A stretch of DNA of 62,500 nt, filler included, from Malassezia furfur (GCA_052055015.1; 4 parts of 4 records of this genome joined end to end with filler, not necessarily neighbours in it); one strand, 5' to 3'. Shown: positions 406 through 47,338, counted from the first letter of the whole stretch. Notes: generated from the letters alone by a model not told the origin. Numbers and translations: made by a program.

Positions 406-444
406 GTACGTCGCCCATCCACACACACGAGCGGCCAGCGGCGC

Positions 445-536
445 TGCGGAGGATTTGCCTTTTTTTACAGTTCTGCTTCCGAAGTGGAGGATCCCTTGCG
501 GACAACCTAATACCAAGCTTACCATTGAATGACGCA
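445..536 (+). ncRNA. snR61: Box C/D snoRNA, snR61-like (25S Am1133-equivalent guide), in 3'UTR intron 406-590
   Basis: Guide CAGTTCTGCTT (468-478) + D' CCGA is complementary to conserved LSU AAGCAGAACUG; C-like CGGAGGA 447-453; D-like ATGA 529-532; perfect 13-bp flanking stem 422-434/549-561; intron GTACGT...GCTAAC...CAG. Confidence 0.8.
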
Positions 537-617
537 CATCCGCCGCGCCCGCTCGTGTGTGCTCGCACTGAGCATTGGCTAACCACACAGATACCCACCC
601 AACAGGTACGCATCCTT

Positions 618-776
618 GCAGCCGCGTCCGGGATTAGAACAAGTACATCCATTCTTTGAGAAGGGCCGCGCGCCGACGCAAGGGCCCGTGGCGAGGTCAT
701 GCTCTGCTGCGCTTTGCGAACGCGCGTGGCGATCCTTCGACGATTCGTTAATCTTCTCGATGAACTTCGCGGCTGC
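618..776 (+). ncRNA. Box C/D snoRNA, mgU6-47/SNORD7/Z30-like (U6 snRNA 2'-O-methyl guide), in intron 606-804
   Basis: GTTAATCTTCTC (747-758) pairs with 12 nt of U6 GAGAAGAUUAGC, and the D-5 base faces the A47-equivalent; D ATGA 760-763 with C-like GGGATTA 630-636; 9-bp terminal stem 618-626/768-776. Confidence 0.7.
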
Positions 777-832
777 TCTGCGCAAGAACAGACTAACACG
801 GCAGTTTCTTCCTGTGAGTATTTCTCCCAATT

Positions 833-946
833 GGATCCTGGGATGATTCTATACCATAGAACAAGCATGGCGAGCTATGTGCTGTGAGCCGCGCTTACAA
901 CATGCATGTACGTCGACGCGCGCACTGACCCAGCACCAACTGATCC
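833..946 (+). ncRNA. snR55: Box C/D snoRNA, snR55-like (18S Um1269-equivalent guide), in intron 814-977, interrupted by nested intron 908-933
   Basis: C box GGGATGA 840-846, D box CTGA 940-943; removing 908-933 gives CATGCATCACCAA-CTGA, complementary to 18S UGGUGGUGCAUG. Confidence 0.75.
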
Positions 947-998
947 CTCCCTGCTCCCAAGGACATGCTAATCACAGATACCCTACGTCGTCCTATAG

Positions 999-1817
999 CT
1001 ACCGACGCTCAATCGACAAATTGTCCATACTTGCTTGCAGCGCATCGACCGCATCGTCCGAGCGGGAGGGCGAGACCGTCTGCGACGCATCGCCAGACGC
1101 CTTGACATCGTTCGTCGGTTTTGCATCGCCAGCTGCTTGGGTGTCGTCGGCCGTCTTGTTCCCTTTCGGCGACAATGCGGCTTTTTCGACAGGACGCTCG
1201 TGCGTAGGCACCGATGCAGCACTCTGCGTCCGTTTGGATGTAGCTGCACTGGCCTTGCTCGGCTGGGTATCCGGAACGAGCTTCGGCTCGGTCGTTATGG
1301 CCGGTTTCGTGGCCGGGCGCGCTGACACCCTGGGTTGCTCTGTTGGTTTTGGCGAGGCGCGCGCCGACGCAAGACGCTCGTTGCGCACACGCCCCTCGTT
1401 GGTCTCCTGCCCCGAACGGGACTCGGCTGGCACCACCTTCTTCCACGTCGACACTTGATCAGCACGCGCCATCGACCCTTTGGGCGCACGGACCTTGCGT
1501 CTTGCCTGCGACGGACTCCCACTACCTTGACTCTCGTTCATACGCACGAGGTCTGCCAGGCTCCGTCCCCCTGGGGAGCGAGGCGATCGTGCATCGCCGT
1601 CGCGCTGCGCGACATGGCGAGGCCGGAATCGCTGTATGTCTTCGGCCGGCGTGAATCCTGGGCGCACTTTCCGCTCCTTGCGCACACTTCATCAGCACAT
1701 CACATACGATCCATCAGCCCGTACACTTGCGGGAATGACGCGCGCGTCTTCGGCTCCGCCAACGATCCCTGACGGCGCGGCGCGCGACGTCCTCGGCGTC
1801 GCAGGCGGCGACGGCAT
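999..1817 (-). CDS. PYM1: PYM/WIBG (partner of Y14-Mago) protein; 21-nt intron 1687-1707
   Basis: Spliced IPASVRADGS|VRKERKVRPGFTPxED Mago-binding motif; unspliced frame hits TGA. Confidence 0.85.
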
Positions 1818-1909
1818 AAGCCTAGAGCAGGTAACCTCCACCGAGTCTGGAAAAACCGCCTAGATGACTACAACGCTAGGCTAGGAATTTTGTCGGTCGC
1901 AAAGTACAT

Positions 1910-2529
1910 CTACTTCTTGATCGTGGTCACCTCGCGGCGGCCGCGGGGCAGGCGCGGCTTGGGCACGCGCTGGCGGCCCTGCTGCGACTTGATGATGTGG
2001 GTAGCGCGGGCAACAGCGTCTGCAGGGTTAGTAAACTGAACGACAAGCACAGGTCCCGGCGCGCAGCACAAGCTGCACACCTCCATGGAGGCTTGTCTGA
2101 CATTGTTGTAGCACCACAAATACGCCCAACCCGTCATAGGACAGAGCCATCAGGGGGGTTCTAGCGTGGTGCGCCGGGACCTTTTAAATACGTACCCTTC
2201 CGGAGGTCGGGGCGGTAGCCGTGCTTGGCCGCGATGTTCGCGACGGCACCAGCCACGCGGCGCGAGCCGCCCTTGACCGTGGTGGTGGCGCGCGCGCCCT
2301 TGACGGCAAACGGCGACACCTTGGTCTTCTTGGTGGTGACATCCACACCCTTCTTCTCGTTGGGGACGATGCCGACCGACTTGTCGTTCACAAGACCAGA
2401 GTACTTGTAGCTGTGCAGCGAAGCCAGGTTACCGGGCTCGCGCGAGAACACGCGGCCGAGGCCCTTCTGCTTCACGAGGTAGCTGTTCGACTTGCGGACA
2501 AGGAGCCACTGGAGATCCTGCGTCGACAT
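1910..2529 (-). CDS. RPL28: 60S ribosomal protein eL28; intron 2020-2195
   Basis: MSTQDLQWLLVRKSNSYLVK...FSREPGNL...SYKYSGL...YRPDLRK|DAVARA. Confidence 0.92.
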
Positions 2530-2644
2530 CACGGTAGGTCGGTGGGTGCAAGTAGCGCGCGCCGCTCGGTTTGCAGAACTGCAATCCGCACGTGATGAGA
2601 TGTGCCACGTGGAGGTGCGGTGGATGGCCCATGCCCCTACCGTT

Positions 2645-3261
2645 ATGGCATCCGCGCCGAGTGTGGAGAGGAACGCGCGGGGCATCCCGACCGCGCCGTT
2701 CGTCGTACGTGTGCGCTGCTTACCCAGGACGATGTCGTCAAGTATCTCGGGAACGAAGATGAAGACGTGATGCCTACGCTCCAAAAGTTCCAGGAGGCCA
2801 TTAGCAAGTACAAATTCATGGAGATGAGCACTGCGCAGCGCCGCCAGGGCCTCGAGCAAAAGATCCCGGATATCACCAACACGCTCAAGATGGTTGAGTA
2901 CTTGAAAAAGCACAAGGTTTGTGGAATGCACTAACGCAGAACGACCCGGAACCGGTAGAGACGACGTTTGAGCTGAACGACACGCTGTACGCGCGCGCGA
3001 AACTCGACCCTATCGATCGCGTGCACCTCTGGCTGGGTGTACGTAATGGAACTCACACAGGCAAATGTCATGCTTTCCTACGATATTGACGAGGCTATTG
3101 ACCTTCTACGGGAAAAGCTGTCGAATGCCAAGGCCAACATGGCCGCAGCAAACGAGGACCTCGGCTTTTTGCGCGATCAAATTACTACGATGGAAGTGAA
3201 TACCGCCCGTGTGCATAACTGGGATGTCAAGCGGCGGCGCGATCGGTACGTGCATCCCTAA
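2645..3261 (+). CDS. PAC10: Prefoldin subunit 3 (Pac10/Gim2/VBP1); introns 2705-2727, 2917-2939, 3039-3060
   Basis: NARGIPTAPFV, FQEAISKYKFME, FELNDTLYARA, LWLG|ANVMLSY, TTMEVNTARVHNWDV. Confidence 0.92.
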
Positions 3262-14275: not shown

Positions 14276-15514
<1,239 letters not shown>

Positions 15515-15574
15515 TGAACGACCACTTGGGACAGAACATCACGTGGTGTATCCGGTGGGACGTGCGGGGTGCGG

Positions 15575-15674
15575 NNNNNNNNNNNNNNNNNNNNNNNNNN
15601 NNNNNNNNNNNNNNNNNNTTAATTAATTAANNNNNNNNNNNNNNNNNNNNNNNNNNNNNNNNNNNNNNNNNNNN
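15575..15674. other. Artificial contig linker
   Basis: N44-TTAATTAATTAA-N44, stops in all frames. Confidence 0.98.
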
Positions 15675-16081
15675 AGTCGACCAGTGCCGCGGCGGGCGCC
15701 GCCGCGCAGCGCGCCTCGGACGCGGGGCGCGACCGCGTACGGGCGCAGCTGCAGGCGCAAGAGGCCGAAGAGGCCGAGCGCCTCGTGCACAAGGACACGG
15801 TCGAGGCGAAGCTGGATGCGTGGATGAACGGCAAGCGCGGCAACGTGCGTGCGCTGCTGTGCTCGGTCGACGACCCGCAGTACGGCCTGCTGTGGCCGGC
15901 GCTGCAGTGGAAAAAGGTGCAGCTGCACGAGCTGGTGACCGACGCGCAGGTGAAGCGTGCGTTTACGCGCGCCATTGCGAAGCTGCACCCCGACAAGCTC
16001 AAGCCGAGCACGACGAGCGTGGAGCAGCGCATGATTGCTACGGGCGTGTTCCATGCGTTGAATGAGGCGTTCCATGGCTAG
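15675..16081 (+). CDS. SWA2: Auxilin-like Swa2 C-terminal J domain (5'-truncated)
   Basis: WMNGKRGNVRALL, WKKVQLHELV, AIAKLHPDKL, VFHALNEAF. Confidence 0.8.
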
Positions 16082-36781: not shown

Positions 36782-39457
36782 ATGGTCGGACACAGTACAA
36801 ATCCACCGCCTTCGGTGCGTATTCAGCGCTCGAGAGCAAATAGTGCGTCGAGCGTGCGCGCGCGCGCGCCGAGCTCCGGCGAAAAGGGCAAGCGTCCGGA
36901 GAGCTTCGGTCGGCCGCCGATCCGCGGCTCGGTATCGCAGCCCGACATGGGCCCTGTCAACTCGCCACTGCTCGCCAGCATGGATGATACGCTTGGCGAC
37001 GACGAGGTCGGCGGGAAACCGGCGCGCAGTCTGCGTGCGCGTCTCATGCCCTGGTCCAAGATGGCGCAGCCGGACGAAGAATACAACATGACGTCGCAGA
37101 CGCCGCGCTCTGAGGTGTATGTGCCGCTTTCCAAGGATGCACCCCGTGGAATCTTGTATCCGCCCGCGGCACCCTCTGCCGAACCCATGGCCGCTAGCGA
37201 GAGCCAGCAGTCGTCTGCCTCGGCGCCGGCCACGGCAGCACAACCCAAGCCGCACCTAACCATCGCTGAGCCCGTGTCGGTGCGTGCGCCGGCGCTGGGT
37301 GACGATGAAGACACATCAGGAGACGTGTCCGGCACACGTCCCCGCCTTGGGTCGCTGGCATCAGTGATGAATGCCGCGGCAGCGTCGATGAATCCCCTGC
37401 CGATGATGTCGTCGATGTGGTCCAGCACCAAGAACGACGACACGCGCTCGATGCATACCGCATCGGATGGGGGCGACGCCGAACACGATGGCGCACGGCG
37501 CAGTGATGAGACCAACACGGGTCGCCGGCGGTCAGCGACGGCACCATCGACGTGGTGGCGGTCGGGCGATCGCAGCGACGGCGAGGCATCTGACGCAGGC
37601 GACGGAGGACAGCCTGCGCAGCAGTTGCACTCGGACCAGATGGTCGACTATCTCGATGTGATCGACCCTGCAGTCGGTGTGTTCAACACGCTGCAGAACT
37701 TTGGCAACAGCACCATGTTGCCCAACATCCCATGGTTCTACAACCGGCGTCCAACGCTGCATATCAACCGTGTCGTCGGCAACGAGACGCAGCCGCCGAG
37801 CCCCACGTCGCCGAGCCCCACGTCGCCCACGCCGCTCTCGCCGACTTATATGGGTCTGGGCGACATTCGCCCGCCGTGGGAACGCGAGGAGCTCGTCGAG
37901 GAACAGCAGCTCGAGCGCGAAGCCGAGCGCCTTGGGCGTGCTGAGCTTGCGCACGAGGATCGCGATGCCGCGACGCCGCTGCCGCCCTTGGCGGCACGAC
38001 GGCACAGCCGCCCTCTGCCGCGGCCGCCCGTGGTGGTGGCAGAGCCGACGACCACCCTACCAACAGGCACGTCGCAACTGGCGCCCGAGGCTGGCTGGTC
38101 GTCGCCCGAGGACTCGCTGCGCCGGCCGAGCACGTCGCAGTCGCGCATTCCGCCATCGTACCCGGACATTGGCACATTGCCCATGCACGTCGCCAGCTCG
38201 GACGGCTCATCGCCGATGCAAAAGCCGCTCGTGGGCGACGACTCGCTGAATACCCTGCCGGATTTGGACGGCGCTGTACACACGGACAAGTGGTGGGAGA
38301 TGGACGAGGAAGAGCGCAAGGAGCTGGACAACCACATTCGACACCTGCTGACAAACAAGAGCAAGGCGAAGCGTGTCCTGCGCGGGTTCTGGAACTTTGT
38401 GCGCACGCCAATGGGCTTCATCCTAACGACCTATGGCCTGCTCATCACGGCGTGGGGCATGTTTATTGTGCTATTGGCCATTCCCTGGGTGCACGTCGGC
38501 GACGCGCACCGCCAGCGGTACTGGATCGAAATCTGCGACCAGGTGCTCTGTGCGCTGTTCGCTGCAGTCGGCCTGGGCTTTGCGCCCTTCCGTGCGGTGG
38601 ATACGTACCGCATGGGGTACATTGCGCATTATCACTTTCTCACGTACAAGCGCCGGCGCCTGCTCAACCTCCCCGAGCTCAAGAACAAGAACGAGCTGCC
38701 GCGCTACTCCAAGGGGCGTGTCGAGCGCCTGCTTAAGTCCAAGGACGGCACCGAAGCCGCGCCCGAAGAGTCCGGCGAGAATCCCAAAGAGCTTACCGAC
38801 CCTGCAATGAGCCTCGAGGCGATCGGCGTAAAACACGCACGCGGCGGACACGCCGAAGAGGTGTACGCAGTCGAGAAACTCTTTGGGCCTTTCCCGGGGC
38901 AGCCGGGCGCGCGGCACAAAAATCCGGACGAGCTGCAAAAACAACGGCTGAAACGCGTGCCTTCGATTGACTCAATGATCGATAAGGAGAGCCAGGAGGT
39001 ATCGGTACTCAGCCCGACGGAGCAAGCGACGTTGCAGCACCAGCAGCGCCTCTTCCATGCCTCCCACACGTTTTACCGCTATCGTGAAACGGCGACGCAC
39101 TGGCCCTTCCCGCTTCGGTTAATGATGGCTATTGTCATCCTACTCGACTGCCACTCGATCCTGCAAGGTACACTCGGCGGCGTGACGTGGGGTATCGAAT
39201 ACAAACACCGTCCCACCGCGCTCACTGCCACAATCATTTCCTTTTCGCTCTCGTGCAACGCTATGGCCGGTATTCTGATCTGGCAGGGCGGCAAGCGCAC
39301 TCGCAAAACAGAGGTCGTCGAGCGTCGCCTCAAGCTTGCCCTCGAGGAGCGCGCCATTGAACGCATGGAACGCAAGAAACGCAAGGCCGCCAAACTCGCC
39401 GGCGTCCAACAGGGCAAACAGGCGATGACCTTTCCTTCGCGGCACAGCAGTGTGTAA
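36782..39457 (+). CDS. DUF2985-like fungal integral membrane protein
   Basis: VDYLDVIDP, TPMGF...TYGLLITAWG, WIEICDQVLCALF, GLGFAPFR. Confidence 0.7.
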   Translation: MVGHSTNPPPSVRIQRSRANSASSVRARAPSSGEKGKRPESFGRPPIRGSVSQPDMGPVNSPLLASMDDTLGDDEVGGKPARSLRARLMPWSKMAQPDEEYNMTSQTPRSEVYVPLSKDAPRGILYPPAAPSAEPMAASESQQSSASAPATAAQPKPHLTIAEPVSVRAPALGDDEDTSGDVSGTRPRLGSLASVMNAAAASMNPLPMMSSMWSSTKNDDTRSMHTASDGGDAEHDGARRSDETNTGRRRSATAPSTWWRSGDRSDGEASDAGDGGQPAQQLHSDQMVDYLDVIDPAVGVFNTLQNFGNSTMLPNIPWFYNRRPTLHINRVVGNETQPPSPTSPSPTSPTPLSPTYMGLGDIRPPWEREELVEEQQLEREAERLGRAELAHEDRDAATPLPPLAARRHSRPLPRPPVVVAEPTTTLPTGTSQLAPEAGWSSPEDSLRRPSTSQSRIPPSYPDIGTLPMHVASSDGSSPMQKPLVGDDSLNTLPDLDGAVHTDKWWEMDEEERKELDNHIRHLLTNKSKAKRVLRGFWNFVRTPMGFILTTYGLLITAWGMFIVLLAIPWVHVGDAHRQRYWIEICDQVLCALFAAVGLGFAPFRAVDTYRMGYIAHYHFLTYKRRRLLNLPELKNKNELPRYSKGRVERLLKSKDGTEAAPEESGENPKELTDPAMSLEAIGVKHARGGHAEEVYAVEKLFGPFPGQPGARHKNPDELQKQRLKRVPSIDSMIDKESQEVSVLSPTEQATLQHQQRLFHASHTFYRYRETATHWPFPLRLMMAIVILLDCHSILQGTLGGVTWGIEYKHRPTALTATIISFSLSCNAMAGILIWQGGKRTRKTEVVERRLKLALEERAIERMERKKRKAAKLAGVQQGKQAMTFPSRHSSV

Positions 39458-44319: not shown

Positions 44320-44423
44320 GGCTGAGTGGCGCAACGGTAGCGCGTCTGATTCCAGCATGTTGGAATACAATGTCCTGCAGGGGAGTCTCCAGAAGGTTAT
44401 CCGTTCGAATCGGGTCTCGGTCA
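44320..44423 (+). tRNA. tRNA-Trp(CCA) with intron ~44356-44387
   Basis: Acceptor GGCTGAG/CTCGGTC, D stem GCGC/GCGC, anticodon CCA 44352-44354, T arm ATCCG-TTCGAAT-CGGGT, T7 Pol III terminator. Confidence 0.88.
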
Positions 44424-46379: not shown

Positions 46380-46879
46380 TTACAACCAGGTTACCCACAG
46401 CAACACAAACAGGGCGAGGTACAGCGCGACCAACGTCTTGACGATCGGCCCGGTGAGCGGGAGCGTGCGCCGCTGCACGTTGCGCAGTGCCTCGAGCTCG
46501 GCGTCGGTGAGGTTGGTGCGCCCGCGTTGCTCCACGACGCGTTCGTAGCCGCGCACGGGCGCGTCCATCGCATCCCACCAGGTCTTGTTCGACGCATACT
46601 GTTGTGCGCGCTGTCCCATGGTAGCCCGCAGCGTGCGGTCGCGGATCAGGCGCTCAAGGAGGATGCTGTACGCCTGCGCACATGGCTGGAAGGACGCGGC
46701 GCTCGGCGACATGGTCGCCGCAAACTCCTTCACGCTCGGGATCGGCGTCGGCAGGCCAGGCTTGAGCGAGCTGGAGGCAGCATGCGGCACGGCGGTCTGC
46801 GTCGTGTGCAGCGGCTGCGACGCATCGCGCACCGGCAGCGCTCCAAAGCCGCGGTCGCCACGCTGCGGCGCGCGCGTCG
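46380..46879 (-). CDS. Probable GT4-family glycosyltransferase, C-terminal part (5'-truncated)
   Basis: LIRDRTLRATMGQRA...TWWDAM...GYE followed by C-terminal TM segment. Confidence 0.5.
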
Positions 46880-46979
46880 NNNNNNNNNNNNNNNNNNNNN
46901 NNNNNNNNNNNNNNNNNNNNNNNTTAATTAATTAANNNNNNNNNNNNNNNNNNNNNNNNNNNNNNNNNNNNNNNNNNNN
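46880..46979. other. Artificial contig linker
   Basis: N44-TTAATTAATTAA-N44. Confidence 0.98.
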
Positions 46980-46981
46980 AG

Positions 46982-47338
46982 CGGCACCTGGAGGCGTACA
47001 CGAACCCCAACCTGACCATCTGGGGCTACACGCGCGAAGAGGGCGGCTACCCTGCGCAATGGCCCAAGAACAAGCTCTATTCGAAGGGCTGCGACACCAC
47101 TGCGGACCGCTCGCGCCCCGGCGACCCCGACCAGCCCGAGGTGCTGGCGCCGATCATTGCGTCGCGCTCGGTGACGCTCGGCGTGTACAGCTGGTCGGCG
47201 AGCCGCGGCGGCGGTGGCGAGCAGGTCATCACGAAGCAGACGCCCATCCCCGGCGAGCCCGGCGCACGGAGCACGTTGCATGCGACGCCAAATGCGAAGC
47301 GGTCCATGGTGCGTGCGGTGCCGACGCCGACGCCGTGA
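46982..47338 (+). CDS. Kre6/Skn1 (GH16) beta-glucan synthesis protein, C-terminal part (5'-truncated)
   Basis: HLEAYTNPNLTIW...WPKNKL..GC, typical Kre6 end. Confidence 0.7.
   Translation, partial: RHLEAYTNPNLTIWGYTREEGGYPAQWPKNKLYSKGCDTTADRSRPGDPDQPEVLAPIIASRSVTLGVYSWSASRGGGGEQVITKQTPIPGEPGARSTLHATPNAKRSMVRAVPTPTP

Follow-up and report, generated by a model that had tools for sequence, protein, structure and literature searches.

The Host Gene and Its Three Predicted Intronic RNAs

The window, by which we mean the whole stretch of 62,500 nucleotides of Malassezia furfur DNA that was analysed, opens inside a protein-coding gene on the plus strand. The 3' part of its coding exon occupies positions 1 to 405, with the open reading frame running off the window start and ending at the stop codon TAG (403-405). 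The encoded protein is EMI1-like (PF11326); its best protein match is 94% identical, and the name given by the sources is "early meiotic induction protein 1". The named homologues all belong to Malassezia: M. yamatoensis (81% identity), M. psittaci (76%), M. japonica (74%), and M. nana (68%). Directly 3' of the stop codon lie three long introns (164-199 nt), and one box C/D RNA was found in each of them.

Host intron 1 (406-590, plus strand, 185 nt; GTACGT ... GCTAAC ... CAG) contains an snR61-like RNA at about 445-533, with a C-like box AGGATTT at 450-456, a D' box CCGA at 479-482, and a D box ATGA at 529-532. When this intron was compared with the Rfam family snosnR61 it scored 29 bits with an E value of 0.026, which is under the gathering score, and a related species described below gave the same match. 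The D' guide has a 10-bp match to AGCAGAACTG in the LSU, seen in 4 rDNA loci among those listed; the target of yeast snR61 is reported to be Am1133 of the 25S rRNA (PMC5199042). A perfect external stem of 13 bp (422-434 / 549-561) surrounds the snR61-like RNA in the window; the relative has in its place an 8-bp stem (GGGGTGCG/CGCACCCC) directly next to the boxes. External stems such as that of intron 1 would make these introns, which are unusually long, effectively shorter.

Host intron 2 (606-804, plus strand, 199 nt; GTACGC ... GACTAAC ... CAG) holds a box C/D-like RNA at about 618-776, delimited by a terminal stem (618-626/768-776) and carrying a C-like box GGGATTA at 630-636, the motif TGAG at 657-660, and a D box ATGA at 760-763. 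This RNA is kept in the relative (contig L002, 2719-2908), where the stem differs on both sides: it is formed by GCAGCCGCG/CGCGGCTGC in the window and by a different pair of strands, matching at 10 of 12 positions, in the other species. Two antisense-like stretches, GTACATCCATTCTT before TGAG and AATCTTCTC before ATGA, are conserved. Neither the RNA of the window nor that of the relative gave an Rfam match or a common rRNA target in the rDNA loci compared, and its identification as snR57 was discarded after no match was found to the 18S G1572 region or to any shared rRNA site. It may be an orphan or may have a target other than rRNA.

Host intron 3, the outer intron of what follows, is 164 nt long (814-977, plus strand), with the donor GTGAGT at 814-819, the branch GCTAAT at 967-972, and CACAG at 973-977, so that its 3' CAG is at 975-977. 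The internal exons between the three introns belong to the 3' UTR and are tiny: micro-exon 2 measures 15 nt (591-605, plus strand, between the CAG of 588-590 and the GTACGC that begins at 606) and micro-exon 3 measures 9 nt (805-813, plus strand). They are unconserved, being replaced in the relative by 3 nt (ATG; L002 2716-2718) and 14 unrelated nt (L002 2909-2922). In that species the stop codon TGA of the host is completed only by the splicing of exon 1 (...TG) onto the 3-nt exon.

The C boxes of the three RNAs share a G rather than a U at position 2. Position 6 is T in the two RNAs with an ATGA D box (AGGATTT and GGGATTA) and G in the one with a CTGA D box (GGGATGA, in intron 3); this covariation looks like a compensating pair across the C/D kink-turn.

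According to a survey of fungi, snR57, snR55, and snR61 form one cluster, which in basidiomycetes is intronic with one snoRNA per intron (PMC3596301). Considering this cluster and the snR61-like RNA in intron 1, an RNA of the snR55 type was to be expected in the third intron.

A further long intron, of 176 nt, was noted on the minus strand at about 2020-2195 in a ribosomal-protein-like gene (GTACGT ... TACTAAC ... CAG); an 11-bp inverted repeat (2052-2062 / 2171-2181) encloses a candidate small RNA in it, for which Rfam gave no match at E values up to 1. The only Rfam match at gathering score in the window is a tRNA on the plus strand at 44320-44423, which probably contains an intron, as it spans 104 nt against the 71 positions of the model. 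The window is broken by runs of N at about 15503-15684 and 46863-46999.

Anatomy of the Putative snoRNA in the Third Intron

The original prediction had described, inside the outer intron, a C box, a D box, and the two halves of a guide separated by 26 nt with splice signals of their own; a direct read-out of the window returned every letter and coordinate of these elements. Taken together they outline the precursor of an snR55-type box C/D snoRNA of 114 nt (833-946, plus strand), or of 88 nt if 908-933 is subtracted, bounded by its boxes and a terminal stem. The C box is GGGATGA (840-846), a C'-like box CTGTGAG lies at 882-888, and the D box is CTGA (940-943). The C box deviates from RUGAUGA at position 2, with G for U, and reads AGGATGA in the relative; the D box is identical in the two species, and the RNA thus has both of the boxes that define a methylation guide of the C/D class. 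The terminal stem has 3 bp only, GGA (833-835) with TCC (944-946), which become GGC and GCC in the relative, both sides being changed. In contrast to the RNAs of introns 1 and 2, this one has no long external stem.

Between the C and C'-like boxes lies CCATAGAA (854-861, plus strand), an accessory antisense element complementary to the 18S stretch TTCTATGG. Guide half 1, CATGCAT, occupies 901-907 on the plus strand and would pair with GCATG of the 18S rRNA and beyond once joined to guide half 2, CACCAA (934-939), which supplies guide positions 1-6 and is followed immediately by the D box. The two halves are separated by the putative inner intron GTACGTCGACGCGCGCACTGACCCAG (908-933, plus strand, 26 nt), which shows a donor GTACGT at 908-913, a branch CTGAC at 925-929, and CAG at 931-933.

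With the Rfam models for snR55/SNORD33, neither the unspliced window nor the relative gave a match at E values up to 10, and none was obtained at gathering score. The snosnR55 covariance model therefore does not recognise the RNA, a result that bears on the interrupted sequence only.

The 26-nt Insert as a Probable Ultrashort Intron

Calling introns from open reading frames was abandoned as too noisy in a sequence of 62% GC, and a strict signal pattern was used instead. We searched both strands of the 62.5-kb window for GTACGT-N6-20-CTNAC-N1-4-YAG, and 26 matches were observed against 0.14 expected from 100 dinucleotide shuffles; the maximum in a shuffle was 2, and 0 of the 100 reached 26. Their lengths range from 21 to 37 nt with a median of 23.5 nt, and the earlier remark that the insert has the same size as the other introns of the genome proved correct. 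In 20 of the other 25 matches, the two reading frames brought together by removal each stay open over 37 codons or more, and in the remaining 5 one side is short. The 6 kb available from the relative contain 5 matches against 0.01 expected. For M. sympodialis, the curated annotation counts 5350 introns, whose mean length is 30 bp and of which 99% have RNA-seq support (PMC5389616). Judged by these counts, the formula marks real introns of this genome almost specifically, and the segment 908-933, one of the 26 matches, carries it.

The segment has the features of an ultrashort U2-type Malassezia intron, namely the donor, a CTNAC branch placed 1-4 nt before YAG, and a length within about 21-37 nt, and its ending CTGACCCAG is shared with three other matches. 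With a looser pattern there were 48 candidates, two of which have a C-box motif at most 110 nt upstream together with CTGA at most 110 nt downstream. Only at 908-933 is this CTGA close to the 3' end of the insert (6 nt); in the other case, at 39079-39100, it is 66 nt away.

A second GT is found 4 nt into the insert (912-913), reading GTCGAC in the window and GTGCTC in the relative. Since CATG is repeated at this point (CATGCATGTAC), its use as donor would rebuild an equally long duplex with the 18S rRNA (12 bp, one G-U). Neither GTCGAC nor its counterpart in the relative fits the donor consensus, for which reason position 908 is favoured as the exact 5' junction of the predicted inner intron.

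Predicted Pairing with 18S Helix 34

Pairing was computed against a set of at least 38 eukaryotic 18S loci from contaminated prokaryotic assemblies, which stand in for the 18S rRNA of Malassezia itself. At least 38 prokaryotic genome records (L004-L041) carry such fragments of eukaryotic 18S rDNA, that is, contamination, and one of them is labelled UNVERIFIED_CONTAM by its source. The flanks of 908-933 were joined in a script, and the last 20 nt before the D box were compared with the rDNA.

Removal of 908-933 puts CATGCAT directly before CACCAA and the D box. The joined guide can form a duplex of 12 bp with one G-U, over guide positions 2-13, and it pairs with TGGTGGTGCATG in 13 of the 13 listed loci longer than 3 kb. 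The 18S target motif given in the original prediction was confirmed across the set: it is present in 36 of the 38 listed 18S fragments, one of the other two being truncated and one having a different first base. The partner of the D+5 position is nucleotide 1265 of a complete 18S rRNA of 1795 nt (Rfam SSU at 1278-3072 of locus L016), a U of helix 34 that is followed by GG, with CCG nine nucleotides later. The series of modified residues described in yeast helix 34 comprises Um1269, guided by snR55, Gm1271, guided by snR40, and ac4C1280 (PMC5199042; PMC5464676). By its position in this series, the predicted target matches the equivalent of yeast Um1269, the snR55 site.

When the 20-mer was left uncut, only matches of 9-12 bp with up to 3 G-U pairs were obtained, scattered and not common to the loci. 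Only with 908-933 removed does the RNA have 10 nt or more of antisense sequence adjoining the D box and a D+5 nucleotide that falls on a methylated rRNA position. The CTGA at 925-928 was tried as an alternative D box and rejected, as it gave scattered matches of 9-12 bp and no shared rRNA target. Likewise, the region upstream of the putative D' showed no shared rRNA target among the listed loci. In silico, then, the RNA would address the Um of helix 34 through its D-box guide and would have an inactive C'/D' side, as defines the snR55 type; in yeast, snR55 is described as having a C'/D' motif that lacks an adjacent guide and complementarity to the regions flanking the methylation site (PMC3116282).

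We also made 286 virtual deletions of 15-40 nt that end 2-12 nt before the D box. Three of them gave 12 bp, and the helix-34 duplex was rebuilt by two only, the predicted one of 26 nt and one of 22 nt that starts from the GT at 912, both with the junction at 933/934. As a control, random 20-mers of the GC-rich window were compared with 10.6 kb of rDNA, and 77 of 1991 had a 12-bp match with at most one G-U somewhere in it; with the match anchored at the box, the figure was 41 of 5966. A 12-bp match alone is therefore not rare, and the weight of the argument lies on the known site, the D+5 geometry, and boundaries fixed beforehand: the splice signals had set the ends of the deletion, and the site was expected from the snR61 neighbour.

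The accessory element adds a second contact. In 19 of the 33 18S fragments with enough upstream sequence, its complement TTCTATGG ends 1 nt short of the guide target, on the upstream side, and such an 8-nt complement arose by chance in 16 of 20000 random 24-mers from the window. The core CCATAGA is kept in the relative. We propose provisionally, the partner having been read from 18S genes other than that of Malassezia, that this uninterrupted 8-nt element pairs beside the same 18S target, an arrangement that would fit the extra flanking pairing reported for snR55 (PMC3116282).

These controls bear on an alternative in which no snoRNA exists, 814-977 being an ordinary 3'-UTR intron with competing sites (814-933 or 908-977) and its C/D likeness a coincidence. 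On paper the splice sites could be used in either of these pairings, and the frequency of 12-bp rDNA matches (the 77 of 1991 random 20-mers) would suit such a reading. It would have to account, however, for the presence of both a C and a D box, for a D+5 nucleotide that falls on a known methylation site, for an 8-nt accessory match of the rarity just given (16/20000), for the snR61-like neighbour, and for the conservation of all these elements in a second species; we consider it extremely improbable.

Conservation in a Second Malassezia Species

The metagenome data were scanned with a pattern made of both guide halves, GT..GT, CTNAC, and AG, with which only interrupted guides are detectable. 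Three contigs were recovered, and all come from one species: their 551-nt host regions are identical, and over 6040 nt they show 2 and 6 differences. No match to the split-guide pattern was found in viral contigs.

The host gene of this relative is orthologous to that of the window: its EMI1-like open reading frame is identical at 84 of 124 positions (68%), and it is followed by three equivalent snoRNA-bearing introns, the third of which reads GTGAGT ... GACTAAC ... CAG. No open reading frame that crosses the snoRNA reaches 40 aa in this species. The named protein nearest to the EMI1-like protein of the relative is that of M. nana (84%), and the one nearest to that of the window is from M. yamatoensis. 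M. nana and M. yamatoensis are placed in separate main branches of Malassezia; if this placement is right, the inner intron would predate the split between them.

The original prediction had proposed an alignment across related species as a check, and the relative supplied it: at exactly the same junctions of the orthologous third intron there is an insert of 23 nt, GTACGTGCTCATGGCTAACGCAG. In a segment-by-segment comparison, guide half 1 is identical at 7 of 7 positions and guide half 2 with the D box at 10 of 10 (17/17 for the guide halves and D box together), the inner donor at 6 of 6, the branch at 4 of 5 (CTGAC versus CTAAC), the spacer at 0 of 1, and the CAG at 3 of 3. The body of the inner intron agrees at 2 of 11 positions only and differs by 3 nt in length, and the 3' flank of the outer intron agrees at 7 of 23. 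The position is thus kept and the body diverged. The splice signals agree at 13 of 14 positions, a figure from two species in which conservation is partly built in, because most of the signal letters were demanded by the search pattern. Functional ends that are kept around a drifting body are, in the alignment of these two genomes, the signature of a spliced intron.

If inner splicing did not take place, the 26 nt would stay in the RNA as a loop, and the two halves would act as a bipartite guide, or CATGCAT as an accessory element only. Accessory pairing outside the guide is documented in yeast C/D snoRNAs, snR55 included (PMC3116282), the core of the snoRNP could assemble on the C/D motifs regardless of the guide, and in each of the two species a guide half stands on either side of the insert. 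Such a loop would leave just 5 bp (guide positions 2-6) beside the D box, however, and the retention of the spliceosomal letters while the body (2/11) and the length (26 versus 23 nt) drift is the pattern of an intron and not that of a structured loop; besides, the short-intron formula almost never arises by chance. Taking into account both sides, we regard retention of the insert as unlikely.

The same comparison bears on the possibility that an intron-like insertion has killed the guide, leaving a disabled copy while another, uninterrupted gene serves helix 34. An imperfect C box and a short terminal stem would suit a copy of this kind. Nevertheless, the guide halves, the C, C'-like, and D boxes, and the accessory element are kept in two species between which most of the flanking intron cannot be aligned (7/23 for the outer 3' flank, as given above), and a dead copy would not keep such elements. 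No uninterrupted copy was found with up to 2 mismatches in the window or in the loci of the relative, which is a small scope. A disabled gene is in our opinion very unlikely.

Proposed Maturation and Its Consequences

The preferred reading is that the third 3'-UTR intron of the EMI1-like gene probably encodes a methylation guide of the snR55/SNORD33 type and that a genuine spliceosomal intron of 26 nt interrupts the antisense element of this guide, 6 nt before its D box. It stands on four independent computations, namely the intron statistics, the duplex with correct D+5 geometry, the orthologous intron of 23 nt, and the snR61-like neighbour. The central claim of the original prediction, a nested intron that splits an snR55-type guide, is supported by the signal statistics, by a 12-bp duplex that forms only after removal, by the relative, and by the neighbouring snR61-like RNA; its exact 5' junction is less firm, given the GT at 912. 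From these features we infer the splicing itself, the order of its two steps, the mature ends of the RNA, and the methylation.

The maturation could proceed as follows. The host pre-mRNA would be transcribed first, and the inner intron would be recognised by intron definition, like the other Malassezia introns of 21-37 nt. It would be removed early, most likely before the 3' site of the outer intron, 34-44 nt further on, is used. The outer intron, by then of 138 nt, would be spliced and debranched, and trimming as far as the snoRNP would leave an RNA of about 88 nt. This RNA would pair with 18S helix 34 through the joined guide (12 bp, one G-U) and the 8-nt accessory element, and fibrillarin would be placed on the uridine equivalent to yeast Um1269.

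An inner-first, cotranscriptional order would be natural, considering that transcription of the inner intron is finished 44 nt ahead of the outer acceptor and that this intron has the preferred size; the stronger statement of the original prediction, that the inner intron must be removed first, is a conjecture. Inner splicing from the excised and trimmed RNA would seem unlikely, because only 13 nt would be left downstream of the junction. The cross-pairings 814-933 or 908-977 would each delete one half of the snoRNA, as had been pointed out in the original prediction. In the window, the outer donor region 812-820 (CTGTGAGTA) and the acceptor region 969-977 (TAATCACAG) are complementary at 8 of 9 positions; this complementarity was considered as an ordering mechanism and dropped, as it is not conserved in the relative.

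That two ordered splicing steps gate the methylation of the 18S rRNA, as the original prediction had it, is likewise conjectural. With no more than 6 nt between the inner acceptor and the D box, snoRNP assembly and inner splicing may compete. A further step would be to see in the nested intron an obligatory and tunable checkpoint. The spliceosome would have to contend with core assembly at the C/D kink-turn, and the share of transcripts spliced inner-first would set the amount of guide and with it the helix-34 Um; the intron would have been inserted into an already intronic noncoding RNA before the Malassezia lineages split. We hold this extension to be rather doubtful; were it true, it would be the first spliceosomal intron gain inside the antisense element of a guide RNA.

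If the preferred reading, the interrupted snR55-type guide, is real, the antisense element of an intronic modification-guide RNA can accommodate a spliceosomal intron, and one small RNA would depend on two nested splicing reactions. The locus would then offer a natural substrate of about 160 nt for the study of splicing order and of the competition between snoRNP assembly and the spliceosome. Since the host sequence is noncoding and already destined for excision, the constraints that a protein frame puts on intron gain do not apply to it. There is also a consequence for annotation: because Rfam/Infernal missed the interrupted form, a survey would score Malassezia as lacking an snR55 guide, although the target site of the snR55 type is universal.

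Comparison with Known Systems

The human counterpart of yeast snR55, and the guide for the helix-34 site, is SNORD33 (U33). The Malassezia RNA resembles both in its predicted target nucleotide at D+5, in having a single guide at the D box, and in a D' side that has no target, and it resembles snR55 also in the extra pairing beside the target and in sharing its host with an RNA of the snR61 type. It is unlike them in that its guide is interrupted by an intron of 26 nt and that the unspliced form has no Rfam match. In the fungal cluster the order is snR57-snR55-snR61, whereas in Malassezia it is snR61-like RNA, orphan, and snR55-like RNA, and the host is the 3' UTR of a protein-coding gene and not a noncoding host. 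As in the fungal cluster II, there is one snoRNA per intron, the internal exons are short and poorly conserved, and the D box is CTGA or ATGA (PMC3596301).

Phrase searches of the open-access literature turned up no account of a methylation-guide snoRNA with an intron in it, which is not proof of absence. The available text of the fungal survey, in which Malassezia is not among the species, reports no intron inside a snoRNA (PMC3596301), and the main text of "The fungal snoRNAome" has no mention of snR55, snR61, Malassezia, or "interrupted" (PMC5824354). No such intron was found either in the accessible portions of the literature on Malassezia snoRNAs and introns, PMC8476143 included, or of a 2023 review of snoRNA maturation.

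A precedent for an interrupted snoRNA is yeast U3 (SNR17A/B), which also belongs to the box C/D class and is also interrupted by a spliceosomal intron. In the pathway described for it, and there called "unique", the intron is removed early, before the ends are trimmed, and core proteins are already present on the unspliced form (PMC5499572). U3 is nevertheless independently transcribed and capped, is not intronic, and is not a methylation guide; the interrupted RNA of Malassezia is itself intronic, and its predicted intron cuts the antisense element.

Nested splicing is on record for another basidiomycete yeast, C. neoformans, where spliceosome profiling identified 13 cases and it was proposed that the inner event could potentially shrink the larger intron (10.1101/224170). 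The excision of a small intron from inside a larger one would be common to both organisms; for the C. neoformans cases, the report, as far as its available text goes, describes no functional RNA that is rebuilt by the inner splice. In the stwintrons of filamentous fungi, as these have been described, two U2-type introns are removed consecutively, and the internal one interrupts a splice signal (donor, branch point, or acceptor) of the external one (PMC8469720, PMC9024468). At our locus the inner intron is separated by 88 nt from the outer donor and by 33 nt from the outer branch, and what it would interrupt is a guide RNA; because no outer splice signal is interrupted, the nested intron of Malassezia is not a stwintron. 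What the locus combines is three kinds of arrangement that are each known: the intronic snoRNA, the intron-containing snoRNA gene, and nested splicing.
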